Below, piece after piece: positions 29,509-33,800 of a stretch of DNA of 64,000 nucleotides (positions are counted from its first letter, which is position 1; the number at the start of each line of letters is the position of its first letter). This DNA is from a virus, in the IMG/VR virus record IMGVR_UViG_3300028073_000008, positions 1-64,000 of that record, one strand, 5' to 3'. Below the pieces are notes generated by a model that was not told the DNA's origin, did no database searches, and was given only the letters and a program-made list of their open reading frames with translations. A program made the translations under genes and the position numbers.

Positions 29509-29892
29509 ATGTCGATGCATTTGGTTGGTCCCTGGTTATCAACTACCAGTACCAAGAAACGCAAGCATATCAAATTTAAAAGCGCAGAGCACAAGCGCAA
29601 GTACGAGGAAGAACGAGCAGAATGGGAAAAGCTAGTCAAGAAATATGGCATAGACAAGCTGCCCAAAACTACCAAATCCAAAGATACTTTCAAACCTACT
29701 GAAAGCTATCGTAGAGAAACTCCGCATATCCCTAGCTTAGATCCTACCAATATGGCTCCTTGCCTCAAGAAGGAAAGCCACAAATATACAGGTACGTTGA
29801 TCAAGGGTATAGCCACGATGCACAAGAGCAATGCGGTTCCTGTGCTTAACGATGAACAGGCTATAGAAATTTCCAAAATGCGCAGAGGTTGA
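29509..29892 (+). CDS. Basic T4-like phage protein
   Basis: C-terminal YTGTLIKGIATMHKSNAVPV...ISKMRRG. Confidence 0.75.
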   Translation: MSMHLVGPWLSTTSTKKRKHIKFKSAEHKRKYEEERAEWEKLVKKYGIDKLPKTTKSKDTFKPTESYRRETPHIPSLDPTNMAPCLKKESHKYTGTLIKGIATMHKSNAVPVLNDEQAIEISKMRRG

Positions 29893-29918
29893 CAACTACT
29901 GTTGAAAAACTGTATAAT
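29889..29918 (+). promoter_or_regulatory. Sigma70-type promoter
   Basis: TTGACA-N18-TATAAT. Confidence 0.65.
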
Positions 29919-29992
29919 ATGCGTATATTAAGTAAAAAAACAGTCAAAATCGACCTATATACTGGACGATCAGGACTAATTACTTTAAATAT

Positions 29993-30236
29993 TATGCGGA
30001 AGAAACTCCGTGTAGCAATGAGCAAGGTGTTAGCAGGTAACTGCGAAACATCAAGCGATAGGGATCTTCGGAAGATTCCATCGTTGACAACTGGTATTGG
30101 TACATATGATCATCTGATAGCAAAGATGAAAGTGTGCCCGAGAGAGTATGCCAAAGATCGGTCCGAGGTCCGTGAAAATTCTCTGTCCATATGTCAACGC
30201 ATCGGTACGCTCAAAAAGTGTTACCGATTTTTTGTT
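29993..30236 (+). ncRNA. Candidate structured ncRNA or leader RNA of unknown class
   Basis: TAAATA 29986, several hairpins, long-range helix, terminal hairpin plus T-run. Confidence 0.55.
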
Positions 30237-30307
30237 TCCGATAGTGACGATATAGTTCACACCTGTATTTTAAGTGTGAATTAAACAATAACATAGGAGG
30301 TTATTTT

Positions 30308-30871
30308 ATGGATAAAATCATTAGGATAGGAGCCGCTGCCCTAGGGTTTTTTGTAGTATTTTGTATCGTGTCTTCAGTGACACAGGCCAAGATGTTAAAG
30401 CTCAAGGAAAGCAATGCCCAAACTACTGATGTAGTCACAGTAAAGACCAGAGAAAAGCAACTGGACTGTTTGGCCATCAACATCTACCGAGAAGCCGGTG
30501 GTGAATCATTCGAAGGCAAGGTCGCAGTAGCACAGGTCACGATAAACAGGACAGAGTCGGGTAAGTTCCCTAAAGACATTTGCTCTGTGGTTTATCAAAA
30601 GAATGTCATAATGGAAAAAGTCGTATGCCAATTTTCTTGGGCATGTGGTCCAGATCATCTGAGAGCCCCAGTCAAGAATGACGCATATCGCGAAAGCTAT
30701 GAAGTAGCCAAGAAGGTGCTTCTGGAAGGTTTCCGTTTAGACATGCTCAAGCAGGCATTGTATTATCATGCCGATTATGTTAACCCAAGGTGGCCTTTTG
30801 AAAAGATCGGCAAAGTCGGTCAACACGTTTTCTATAAGGCACCGTTCTTAGGAGAAACAAATGGATCTTAA
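30308..30871 (+). CDS. SleB-family cell wall hydrolase (Hydrolase_2)
   Basis: CLAINIYREAGGE, VAVAQVTINR, CQFSW, YYHADYVNPRW, IGKVGQHVFY. Confidence 0.92.
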   Translation: MDKIIRIGAAALGFFVVFCIVSSVTQAKMLKLKESNAQTTDVVTVKTREKQLDCLAINIYREAGGESFEGKVAVAQVTINRTESGKFPKDICSVVYQKNVIMEKVVCQFSWACGPDHLRAPVKNDAYRESYEVAKKVLLEGFRLDMLKQALYYHADYVNPRWPFEKIGKVGQHVFYKAPFLGETNGS

Positions 30872-31184
30872 ATCTCTAAAATTTGATTTTGATTTAGAGA
30901 AGTTCCGTAACAACATTAGTGAAACATTTTCACATATTTCAGCAGAGACTTTGGGATGGGTCGCTATTTTGCTACTACACGCATCCACTATACCCAGTCT
31001 ACTTGCTGTGATGAGCGGCTTGACTGATAGGATGCCGCCAGTGGACATCGTTCTTTTAGTATGGACTGGCTTAACACTGTTATTCATCCGAGCAGCCATC
31101 CAAAAAGACATGCTTAATTTAATTACTATAGGTGTTGGTTTTATCGTCCAATCAGCACTTATGGCATTTATATTCTTTAAGTAA
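30861..31184 (+). CDS. Small multi-pass membrane protein, possible holin
   Basis: Three hydrophobic segments; follows hydrolase. Confidence 0.6.
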   Translation: MDLKSLKFDFDLEKFRNNISETFSHISAETLGWVAILLLHASTIPSLLAVMSGLTDRMPPVDIVLLVWTGLTLLFIRAAIQKDMLNLITIGVGFIVQSALMAFIFFK

Positions 31185-31201
31185 TTTGGTAAACACCACT
31201 A

Positions 31202-31230
31202 TTGACTTCGGTTGGTAGTGGTGTTATCAT
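31202..31230 (+). promoter_or_regulatory. Sigma70-type promoter overlapping a hairpin
   Basis: TTGACT-N17-TATCAT inside AACACCACT...AGTGGTGTT inverted repeat. Confidence 0.55.
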
Positions 31231-31264
31231 TTAAGCTATCAGTAATTCACACAGAAAGGCACAA

Positions 31265-31741
31265 ATGAAAAAGGCACTATTAATGGTACCAGTACTGGCT
31301 GCGTTGACAGCTTGTTCCACCATGAAAGAAATCGAAGAACGCAAGACTTATGCCCAACCGAGTTGGTATTCCGACTGCGCACAAGAAGGTGTCAAAGGTT
31401 GGTTCTGGTGGTCTAAAGATTATGTCTATGCCTGTGGTGCTGGCGAATCAACATTTTCGCAGGCAGCAGAAGAACAGATGGACGCTATCGCGATGAATAA
31501 CTTTGCCAAGCGTATCAACGGCACAGTTAATTCCGAAACTGTTATCGATATCAAAGACGACAAGAAAACTACTCGTACTATGATTAGTTACAAAGTCGAT
31601 AATACAGCCATCCGCAAACACGTTAAGACTGAAAAAGGTCATTTCACTATGAATGGACGTCATTACACGTTTGTTCGTTTAGAAATGCCCAAGGATACAT
31701 TCGAACAATTGGTCACCGAAGCTAAAGCCAAAGGCCAATAA
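31265..31741 (+). CDS. Lipoprotein (LPP20-like)
   Basis: Lipobox LTAC; PSWY motif. Confidence 0.75.
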   Translation: MKKALLMVPVLAALTACSTMKEIEERKTYAQPSWYSDCAQEGVKGWFWWSKDYVYACGAGESTFSQAAEEQMDAIAMNNFAKRINGTVNSETVIDIKDDKKTTRTMISYKVDNTAIRKHVKTEKGHFTMNGRHYTFVRLEMPKDTFEQLVTEAKAKGQ

Positions 31742-32112
31742 TGAATCCTTATCGATTGAAAGAGATCTTTTGGGTGGTGATCGCACTACTCTATTGTATT
31801 CTATTTCTGATCCTTGGGGGTTGTTCTTCGGTACCTCAATCAAAGATGTCTCCGGCTATGGCGGAACCTCAGTTTTGTTATACCAAAAAAACTATAGAGG
31901 TACAAGACGATGAACAAGTGTCAAGTCGGACTGTAGTAGAATGCGATGACGATCGAGTTGGCAGAGTGGCTATCAAGCGAGCTGGGTTGGCACAGAATTG
32001 TGGTGTTTATAACTATTGGATGAAACGCGGAAATGACATTGTTTGGAAAAAAGGCGTCAGTTGTTTCAAGCCTGATGGTACTTGGGAAATTATTGATACT
32101 GACTTTCGCTAG
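31741..32112 (+). CDS. Cys-rich lipoprotein
   Basis: Lipobox LGGC; C-terminal CFKPDGTWEI. Confidence 0.65.
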   Translation: MNPYRLKEIFWVVIALLYCILFLILGGCSSVPQSKMSPAMAEPQFCYTKKTIEVQDDEQVSSRTVVECDDDRVGRVAIKRAGLAQNCGVYNYWMKRGNDIVWKKGVSCFKPDGTWEIIDTDFR

Positions 32113-32455
32113 TTCAACTGCGTTGGCTGGTGAACCGTTCAAGTATGATTCTACCCTAGTAAACAGGCCAGCTGATCTTTCATTTGGTTGGTTTAAAAAA
32201 CTGGATGAAGATCAAGAAACGGCCTATGTTTCATCTATGGTACATGCCTTGATGTATGCGGATAACGGTCAAAGAGTAGAATGGTATAAAAACGGTGCTT
32301 ATGGGTTTGCTGTGCCAGTTTATACTAAATCTACAGGGGGTGGCTATTGTAGGCGCATACAGGCCTATGTATATGCTTTTAATCAGGAAAGGCAATTTAG
32401 CGAAACTGCCTGTTATACTAATTTCAACGACAGTTGGAGATGGGTAGTTGAGTAA
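32075..32455 (+). CDS. Exported 17-kDa surface-antigen-like protein
   Basis: Signal peptide; GYCRRI...ETAC...WRW. Confidence 0.6.
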   Translation: MVLGKLLILTFASSTALAGEPFKYDSTLVNRPADLSFGWFKKLDEDQETAYVSSMVHALMYADNGQRVEWYKNGAYGFAVPVYTKSTGGGYCRRIQAYVYAFNQERQFSETACYTNFNDSWRWVVE

Positions 32456-32468
32456 TAAATATACAACG

Positions 32469-33800
32469 ATGAAAATAAGAATCACAGATAAAATAATTGC
32501 CTATTTGACTCTATTAAGCGGCCTTAGCATCAGTGCTGTGGCCGTTTATTATTCTGTGGCGGGATTGGTATCTATATTTGCTGCCGCTGCTGTACCTATT
32601 ATGGTCATGGGCATCACACTGGAAGTCAGCAAACTAATAGCCACTGTATGGCTAAAGCAGAATTGGTCTATAGCACCTAAATTAATCAGAGCCTATTTAA
32701 TGATAGCGGTATTCACGCTGATGTTGATTACCTCTATGGGTATTTTTGGATACCTTTCAAAGGCACATCTTGATCAAGCAGTGCCAACTGGTGACGTAGC
32801 CGCAAAAATTGAACTGATCGACGAAAAGATAAAAACACAAAGAGATAACATCTCTACCGCTCAGGCTGCTATCAGGCAAATGGATAATCAAGTCAACGAG
32901 ATGTTGAGCCGTAGTACCGATAATAAAGGTACAGAACGTGCTGTTCAGATTCGACGTAACCAAGCCAAGGAAAGAGAAAAGCTAGCAGCAGATATTGGTA
33001 GAGCCCAAACAGAAATAGCCAAGCTCAACGAAGAACGAGCTCCTATAGCCAAAGAGCTTCGCAAAGTAGAAGCCGAAGTTGGACCTATCAAATATATTGC
33101 TGCCTTGATATATGATACCAACCCCGGCCCCGAACTGTTAGAAAAAGCAGTACGTTGGGTTATCATATTGATCGTGTTCATCTTCGATCCTTTGGCCGTG
33201 GTGTTGCTACTGGCCAGTCAATACAGCTTCAGTTGGTTTAGAAAACGTGAAGATGAAGAATTTGAACAAGAATTAGAAAAGAAACGAGCAGTCGCAGAAG
33301 CACTAGATAAGAAAGAAGATCTGCCAGTGCCTACGACTATAGTTCCTGTAAACCTAGACAATGAAGATGCCGACAACGATGTTGTAGTTGTTAAAGAAGA
33401 TCATACCCAATCATGGCCTCCAGTTTCTGACAAATGGCCGTTTCCGGTAGCTCAACGTCCGGATGAAGAAAAAGAACCTGAGATTACAGCTGACAGTTTG
33501 AATCCTGTTGACCAATGGAACAAACTGATAGCAGAAGCTGAAAAAGCTGCCGAAGAAGAAAATAAAAAACTAAAAGAAGAAGATCCTATCGAAGAAGAAG
33601 GCGATACCGAAGAACTAGTAAAAGCCAAGACACAGTGGAAACAGGATCATCCCGATGACAGCCTCAAACATCAAAGACAACTGCTAGAGCTTGGTGTTAT
33701 CAAAGTTCTACCTTGGACAGTACCGCCATATTTTGATCCAACTCCTACTGGTTTACAGATCATACCTGACCTCGAAGAAGATCTAAAAAAAAAGATCTGA
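32469..33800 (+). CDS. Membrane coiled-coil protein; possible -1 frameshift extension to 34114
   Basis: N-terminal TM helices, coiled coil, GPIKYIA, FDPLAV; ends at A_AAA_AAG. Confidence 0.8.
   Translation: MKIRITDKIIAYLTLLSGLSISAVAVYYSVAGLVSIFAAAAVPIMVMGITLEVSKLIATVWLKQNWSIAPKLIRAYLMIAVFTLMLITSMGIFGYLSKAHLDQAVPTGDVAAKIELIDEKIKTQRDNISTAQAAIRQMDNQVNEMLSRSTDNKGTERAVQIRRNQAKEREKLAADIGRAQTEIAKLNEERAPIAKELRKVEAEVGPIKYIAALIYDTNPGPELLEKAVRWVIILIVFIFDPLAVVLLLASQYSFSWFRKREDEEFEQELEKKRAVAEALDKKEDLPVPTTIVPVNLDNEDADNDVVVVKEDHTQSWPPVSDKWPFPVAQRPDEEKEPEITADSLNPVDQWNKLIAEAEKAAEEENKKLKEEDPIEEEGDTEELVKAKTQWKQDHPDDSLKHQRQLLELGVIKVLPWTVPPYFDPTPTGLQIIPDLEEDLKKKI

Follow-up and report, generated by a model that had tools for sequence, protein, structure and literature searches.

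The question raised by this locus is what occupies the 415-nt gap between a phage gene of unknown function (PHROG 27048) and the gene of a membrane-anchored, SleB-type cell-wall hydrolase, and what it does there. The window analyzed here, a stretch of 64,000 nt, is the first 64 kb of a 169-kb virus record rated by CheckV as 48% complete, a size and a rating which together imply a jumbo-size phage. The phage is uncultivated, its source being the metagenome record alone. An original prediction, made by reading the letters of this DNA, had proposed that the gap encodes a highly structured RNA, being either an undescribed non-coding RNA or an attenuator or riboswitch of the hydrolase operon. The gap does hold a structured RNA, and this RNA belongs to a real, uncatalogued family, here called type B. 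With moderate confidence we read positions 29997-30307 of the window as a cis-acting, riboswitch-like 5' leader of this type which would control the SleB-type endolysin gene. The features of the locus are collected in Table 1.

Table 1. Position of the type B leader, its structural elements and its flanking signals in the window.
Feature	Position	Strand	Remarks
Upstream gene of unknown function	29509-29892	+	PHROG 27048
Sigma-70-type promoter	29889-29918	+	-35 29889-29894, -10 29913-29918; predicted
TAAATA box	29986-29991	+	Probable phage (late-type) promoter element; putative
5' hairpin H1	29993-30014	+	MFE folds; sequence window-specific, relatives without it
Hairpin H2 (P0 position, just 5' of Pa)	30026-30052	+	MFE folds
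Type B leader core	30038-30207	+	R1 118 bits, E about 1e-36, model positions 1-167 (full length)
Hairpin Pa	30061-30079	+	Compensatory changes in 5/7 pairs (50 sequences)
Pa loop	30068-30072	+	Nearly invariant
P1 5' strand, closing helix of core domain	30082-30089	+	96% of cells paired
Junction J1/2	30090-30098	+	Conserved, unpaired; mostly invariant columns in alignments A3 and A6
Variable hairpin P2	30099-30138	+	Stem 30099-30105 with 30132-30138; all 9 pairs compensatory
Conserved junction block	30141-30157	+	Invariant in A3 and A6; 30144-30157 nearly invariant, unpaired
Helix P4 (tentative)	30141-30147 with 30178-30184	+	7 bp in window; 4% of shuffled tails equal
Site complementary to Pa loop (candidate pseudoknot PK1)	30163-30168	+	Tentative
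P1 3' strand	30192-30199	+	Pairs with 30082-30089
Intrinsic-terminator-like hairpin and U-run	30201-30228 and 30229-30237	+	-11.7 kcal/mol; predicted
Window counterpart of UCCG element	30236-30244	+	Between P5 and P6
Hairpin at position of other members' pseudoknotted hairpin	30256-30280	+	MFE fold
Shine-Dalgarno sequence of hydrolase gene	30295-30300	+	
SleB-type hydrolase gene, membrane-anchored, 187 aa	30308-30871	+	PF07486 E = 6.6e-24; PHROG endolysin families

The predicted sigma-70-type promoter matches the consensus in 12 out of 12 positions with an 18-nt spacer, and is the best such site within positions 27500-32000. The TAAATA hexamer has 32 plus-strand copies in the window, among them those at 26545, 28057, 29986, 43342, 46750, and 49344; while sequence outside plus-strand ORFs makes up just 13% of the window, 23 of the 32 copies are found there, mostly 10-90 nt before starts. 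From this distribution TAAATA is probably the phage's own, late-type promoter element, and if the box at 29986 serves as a promoter the RNA would have its 5' end near 29997. The distance of 316 nt from this box to the hydrolase start codon is exceptional when compared with the usual 10-90 nt. The enrichment of two 7-8-mers found near the RNA was not above chance.

All of the helices that had been listed for the leader are present in the sequence and recur in minimum-free-energy (MFE) folds. A transcript covering positions 29925-30310 (386 nt) folds at -110.8 kcal/mol, as against -84.1 +/- 5.0 kcal/mol in dinucleotide shuffles (z = -5.35), and none of 100 shuffles folded as well. Comparison with relatives separates these helices into those which belong to a family and those which are particular to this phage. 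The proposed long-range helix corresponds to P1, and the GGTACAT/GTGTGCC hairpin to P2; both are kept in relatives and covary. For the third hairpin the prediction holds in its inner part, Pa, which is conserved and covarying, but not in the outer AGCGAT/ATCGTT extension, which is not conserved. The TGGTAT/ATGCCA pairing is present in the window but is not kept by the relatives, and likewise the first two hairpins, H1 and H2, appear in the folds of the window but have sequences that are not conserved elsewhere. Where the flanks of other members were read there is again a hairpin directly 5' of Pa, although its sequence differs.

The gap also contains a 131-aa ORF (29889-30284), conservation of which as a protein had been named as the finding that would speak against an RNA. 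This ORF opens at the TTG of the -35 box and its frame is open in the window. It has no family match in Pfam or PHROG and is not conserved in relatives: in most of them stop codons interrupt each of the three forward frames across the core, and the relatives differ by indels of non-triplet length. Treating TAG as a sense codon gave no better gene at the locus, nor did it improve the ORFs in 27000-33500.

Searches for known RNAs in 29800-30400 (E <= 10) and in eight relatives (E <= 1) gave no family of Rfam 15, while a scan of the window and ten relatives at both gathering and permissive thresholds returned nothing relevant, and BLAST of the region found no match in the GenBank phage collection. 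The original proposal of an undescribed RNA is supported by the lack of a counterpart in Rfam 15, by covariation across a family, and by the non-coding nature of the core. Structured leaders are found upstream of bacterial genes for cell-wall hydrolases in the case of the c-di-AMP riboswitch (ydaO-yuaA, RF00379) and the lysM-Actino, lysM-Prevotella, lysM-TM7, and M23 motif RNAs, of which the lysM and M23 motif RNAs are orphan candidates without a known ligand (PMC5737381). Type B is similar to all of these in being a structured 5' leader of a gene for a cell-wall-degrading enzyme; it differs in that they are bacterial RNAs with a different downstream gene family, and neither the window (E <= 10) nor the eight relatives (E <= 1) matched their Rfam models.

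Members of type B were gathered with nhmmer (five loci), then with two-part DNA patterns in viral and metagenome contigs, and then through the relatives of distant hydrolases. The covariance model R1, which was built from 13 sequences with the window among its seeds, recognizes 51 loci in uncultivated phage contigs (50 distinct sequences) at 55-159 bits, and the later-found, independent members score 55-142 bits. Its match to the leader core is the sole one in the window and in the 169-kb record, and each of five phage records searched whole, one of them rated 97% complete, contains a single type B copy. R1 has no match in the loci of a second leader type (type A, described below), in chance pattern matches, or in bacterial genomes. 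Soil and bacterial matches to the two-part pattern were discarded, as they lack an R1 match and are not type B, and the matches listed for a 14-base exact pattern in viral contigs were mostly due to chance. A G+C-rich element, near-identical in about a dozen metagenome contigs (L286, L288, L289, L297, L299-L301, and L303-L306), was also picked up as a chance pattern match; it bears no relation to the leader RNA, L286, the one tested, having no R1 match.

When the proposed structure was imposed on the 50 distinct sequences, 91.3% of cells were standard pairs, compared to 32-45% when the 3' partners were slid by 1-3 columns. Compensatory double changes are seen in sixteen pairs, five in Pa, two in P1, and nine in P2, with values that no shuffle attains, and both pairing and covariation also hold on a MAFFT alignment which was not fitted to R1. 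The original prediction had been ready to yield if homologous leaders lacked covariation; the 50 distinct leaders gathered here do covary. As an example, pair 47:184 in P1 is A-U in 26 sequences, G-C in 16, and G-U in eight. The window itself forms six of the seven Pa pairs, all eight P1 pairs, and eight of the nine P2 pairs, and extends P2 distally by a window-specific helix (30110-30115 with 30124-30129). In addition to the helices, type B RNA has about 40 nearly invariant unpaired bases. The P2 loop (alignment A6 columns 73-97) has conserved motifs that depend on the subgroup, GAAACAAA being that of the largest one and GGAC that of several of the rest; neither is present in the window.

Other pairings within the core were assessed in the same set. 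Helix P4 exists with different sequences in several subgroups; as a family-wide helix it was rejected, since in the largest subgroup it does no better than shuffled tails. Also rejected were a mini-hairpin P3 of 3 bp, whose middle pair does not form in 22 of 50 sequences, a lengthening of P1 by 3 bp (ACU:AGU) that RNAalifold had suggested and that the largest subgroup has lost without compensation, and a role for the 3' arm of Pa as an anti-Shine-Dalgarno sequence, for which the window (-3.8 kcal/mol, shuffle mean -3.9 kcal/mol) is not better than shuffled arms. The candidate pseudoknot PK1, between the Pa loop and its complementary site within the core, is paired in 97% of cells across the 50 sequences, with changes that are one-sided and none that is compensatory.

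Most members extend for about 55 nt to the start codon through a 3' module composed of P5, a UCCG element, P6, and the ribosome-binding site. P5 is a hairpin of 5-6 bp in the other members inspected, with compensatory changes seen by eye, and the UCCG element is conserved in nearly all members. In most members the three bases following UCCG find their partners at the start of the P6 loop, with covariation at all three positions: the combinations are CUG:CAG (15 by script and two by eye), GUG:CAC (nine and a further one by eye), CCG:CGG (one), and probably CGU:ACG (nine, read by eye). This pattern is that of an H-type pseudoknot, which is predicted to lie just a few bases 5' of the Shine-Dalgarno sequence. 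H-type pseudoknots at the ribosome-binding site are known from the translational riboswitches preQ1-II and SAM-II/V. As in those, a strand 5' of the hairpin pairs with the hairpin loop near the Shine-Dalgarno sequence in most type B members; unlike those, type B has no match in Rfam and its pseudoknot forms just the final module of an RNA that is far larger. The pairing of the P6 loop is uncertain in the window, there being two weak 3-bp options. The predicted pairing probability of the ribosome-binding site runs from 0.03 to 1.0 overall, and at 0.2-0.55 that of the window is weakly paired.

At the counterpart of the UCCG element, six bases (30236-30241) could pair with the Pa loop region (30068-30073), making up a tentative alternative pseudoknot, PK2. 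Its loop base and its element base have changed jointly in one lineage, being A and U, respectively, in 41 sequences and in the window, and C and G in six. Because PK1 and PK2 use the same Pa loop bases, only one of them can form at once. Their alternation would make a natural switch, for which the support is thin, as PK2 shows a single compensatory event and PK1 shows none. A long-range helix that would close the whole leader by pairing its 5' region with the UCCG element was also considered, and was rejected for the family as it is significant in L322 and L323 only. In these two loci (L322:800-1200, L323:700-1100) the UCCG element together with its flank has a perfect complement of 7-9 nt, located about 64 nt 5' of Pa (-13 to -16 kcal/mol, with at most 5% of shuffles as good), which suggests a further long-range pairing in this subgroup.

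The terminator-like hairpin and T-run of the original prediction are both present in the window, where they represent P5 enlarged to 11 bp. A simple terminator scan did not list this hairpin, perhaps on account of one bulged base in the stem. Since no such terminator is found in the other members whose 3' region was inspected, attenuation is not the general mechanism of type B. The start codon follows the core at a distance of 100 nt in the window, against about 47 nt in other members (the hydrolase start being about 45-60 nt after the end of the R1 model in type B loci), and no TAAATA or other promoter-like site was seen between the terminator and the start codon. The 3' arm of the terminator (30215-30228) matches 30129-30142, which is the 3' side of P2 and the adjoining junction, in 11 of 14 positions, so that the 5' arm could pair instead with 30130-30152, at a predicted -13.1 kcal/mol. 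A folded core would then be expected to favor termination. This candidate antiterminator must open P2, a stable local hairpin that forms first, and none of the mutually exclusive structures is backed by covariation across the type B family. In the late leader of phage lambda, transcription from PR' is terminated at tR' to give the 6S RNA, and Q acts as the antiterminator. The window is similar in its succession of a strong promoter, a short terminated transcript, and a lysis gene that would need read-through; it differs in that the lambda 6S RNA is not a conserved fold and in that the other inspected type B members have no terminator. Antiterminators of the Q families PF06530 and PF03589 are absent from the 48%-complete record.

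The association of type B with the hydrolase gene is exclusive. A SleB-type hydrolase gene lies directly downstream in 50 of the 51 loci, and the contig of the 51st ends 15 nt after the RNA. Representatives of all six subgroups tested match PF07486, and the RNA is kept where the hydrolases are merely 34-58% identical to that of the window; the upstream neighbors vary between subgroups. In a tree of the hydrolases type B occupies no fewer than three distinct lineages, interspersed among others that carry type A or short leaders, although the long branches of this tree make the exact number of gains and losses unreliable.

Searches with the flanking proteins showed that most related contigs keep the order of upstream gene, gap of about 300 nt, and hydrolase gene. 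In most of these relatives the gap holds the type A RNA (44 distinct sequences), which has covarying hairpins, is very well conserved, and is likewise absent from Rfam; examples are L002-L066 and others, where an RNA of about 230 nt lies about 290 nt upstream of the hydrolase gene (L002:2713-3000). The two types have in common their placement, between a promoter and an orthologous gene for a membrane-anchored PF07486 hydrolase in uncultivated relatives, as well as a length of about 230-300 nt, covarying hairpins, and a highly conserved core; type A differs from the more widely distributed type B in being confined to one shallow hydrolase clade. Homology between them was rejected at the level of sequences and profiles: the nhmmer profiles do not cross-match, R1 is blank in type A loci, and the profile of the type A alignment A1 has no match in the leader region of the window. 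In five contigs with gaps of 725-797 nt (L046, L049, L058, L085, and L087) an extra ORF of about 0.5 kb lies between the upstream gene and the type A leader, an insertion which leaves both the leader and its promoter intact. A further three contigs have short leaders of 150-175 nt (L095:3397-3548, L131:3400-3574, L134:3397-3564) in which a terminator-like hairpin is followed, before the hydrolase gene, by a tiny upstream ORF of 7-12 codons with its own Shine-Dalgarno sequence; these may be a third kind of leader.

Linkage to a single gene family, one copy per genome, and a fixed proximity to the ribosome-binding site argue for a cis-acting leader of the riboswitch kind, and so do the many invariant unpaired bases and the fact that sister phages have an unrelated RNA in this place. 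The differing 3' arrangement of the window points in the same direction, as the expression platforms of riboswitches vary. Of the general features of a riboswitch, type B has a covarying structured domain, conserved unpaired bases, and a constant position in the 5' UTR. According to this reading the leader would work in cis much like a riboswitch, sensing a metabolite or a phage or host factor, and would set the amount of endolysin made. In most members control would be exerted on translation by way of the pseudoknot near the ribosome-binding site, and the Pa loop may switch between its two complementary sites. In the phage of the window, where P5 has turned into a predicted intrinsic terminator, this would add a transcriptional layer, with RNA polymerase having to read through before the endolysin gene could be expressed. 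A membrane-targeted endolysin made prematurely could plausibly harm the host too early, which would be a reason for tight control.

Several other readings of the locus have to be weighed against this one. It is unlikely that the RNA is a stand-alone, trans-acting small RNA of about 240-310 nt, transcribed from the promoter at 29889 or the TAAATA at 29986 to about 30237, which merely adjoins the hydrolase gene or is processed from its leader. The perfect sigma-70-type promoter and the good intrinsic terminator that flank the RNA in the window would fit such a transcript equally well, its unpaired regions are very highly conserved in sequence, and the phage carries other RNA genes, for a tmRNA and a tRNA. 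On the other hand, the terminator is missing from the other members with an inspected 3' region, and in those members conserved structure continues almost as far as the ribosome-binding site, stopping a few bases short of it with near-constant spacing; moreover, type B was never found away from a SleB-type gene.

The leader could alternatively sense nothing and act on mRNA stability or processing, or provide timing by promoter choice, as documented for the lysozyme gene e of phage T4. There the structure of the leader RNA prevents premature synthesis, since the ribosome-binding site is hidden in the long early transcripts and accessible in the late ones (PMC3014915), a form of control which is attributed in a passage of that review to McPheeters et al., 1986. 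T4 gene e and the window have in common a structured leader RNA on the gene of a phage lysis enzyme and both early and late promoter types upstream. In T4, however, a single simple hairpin covers the ribosome-binding site and has the late promoter within it, whereas type B is a conserved multi-helix structure of more than 170 nt which lies wholly downstream of both promoter-like elements. We consider a leader of this non-sensing kind distinctly unlikely, even with the T4 precedent, two promoter-like elements of different type upstream, and a gene product that could be harmful when made early. As the TAAATA box precedes the start codon by 316 nt, the entire fold would still be part of the late transcripts, and this placement, together with the weak predicted pairing of the ribosome-binding site in the window (0.2-0.55), differs from the sequestration seen in T4. 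Furthermore, some 40 nearly invariant unpaired bases and the pseudoknot candidates exceed what a simple occluding hairpin would need.

Many small ribozymes are associated with phages, and a compact pseudoknotted fold with many invariant unpaired bases in the 5' leader of a cell-wall-related gene could also suit a self-cleaving or otherwise catalytic leader akin to the glmS ribozyme; this is very improbable, as type B matches no Rfam ribozyme family and no cleavage-site signature was identified in it. The notion that the region codes for the 131-aa protein, or that its structure is a chance feature of an ordinary spacer, draws on the frame being open in the window and is already refuted by a start within the -35 box, the lack of any Pfam or PHROG family, the stops and non-triplet indels of relatives, the compensatory changes in the helices, and the z-score of the fold.

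The timing of phage lysis is normally ascribed to holins and to transcriptional timing. A dedicated and deeply conserved RNA fold on an endolysin gene, which in sister phages is swapped for an unrelated fold, points to a form of lysis control at the RNA level that has not been described before. Extending the riboswitch-like reading of type B, it is conceivable, although we regard it as doubtful, that types A and B, and perhaps further leaders, are unrelated riboswitch classes that sense the same signal, gate the endolysin, and so time lysis. If true, a phage lysis enzyme would for the first time be seen under riboswitch-type control, and the ligand-sensing RNA fold would be new as well. Should the RNA bind a ligand it would constitute a new class of sensor, and offer a way of learning what giant uncultivated phages keep track of before they kill the cell. 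New in this work are the type B class, its model, the 3' pseudoknot, and the terminator-bearing variant; the 50 distinct sequences and their clear covariation suffice for an Rfam entry and for biochemistry on synthetic RNA without culture of the phage.

Some other features were noted in the same part of the genome. A tRNA gene at 22831-22904 has the anticodon CUA, which would read amber; it is called as tRNA-Pyl by ARAGORN and scores 42.7 bits with the Rfam tRNA model. Positions 28480-28866 and 28962-29414 hold a gene for an S-adenosylmethionine decarboxylase (PF02675, E = 1e-18) and an adjoining small protein whose matches to outer-membrane beta-barrel families are weak and below threshold. 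A circularly permuted, two-piece tmRNA is encoded at 28032-28495 (Rfam tmRNA_permuted, 138.7 bits), with the TAAATA box at 28057 just upstream and a tag peptide given by ARAGORN as ANDNVYALAA.
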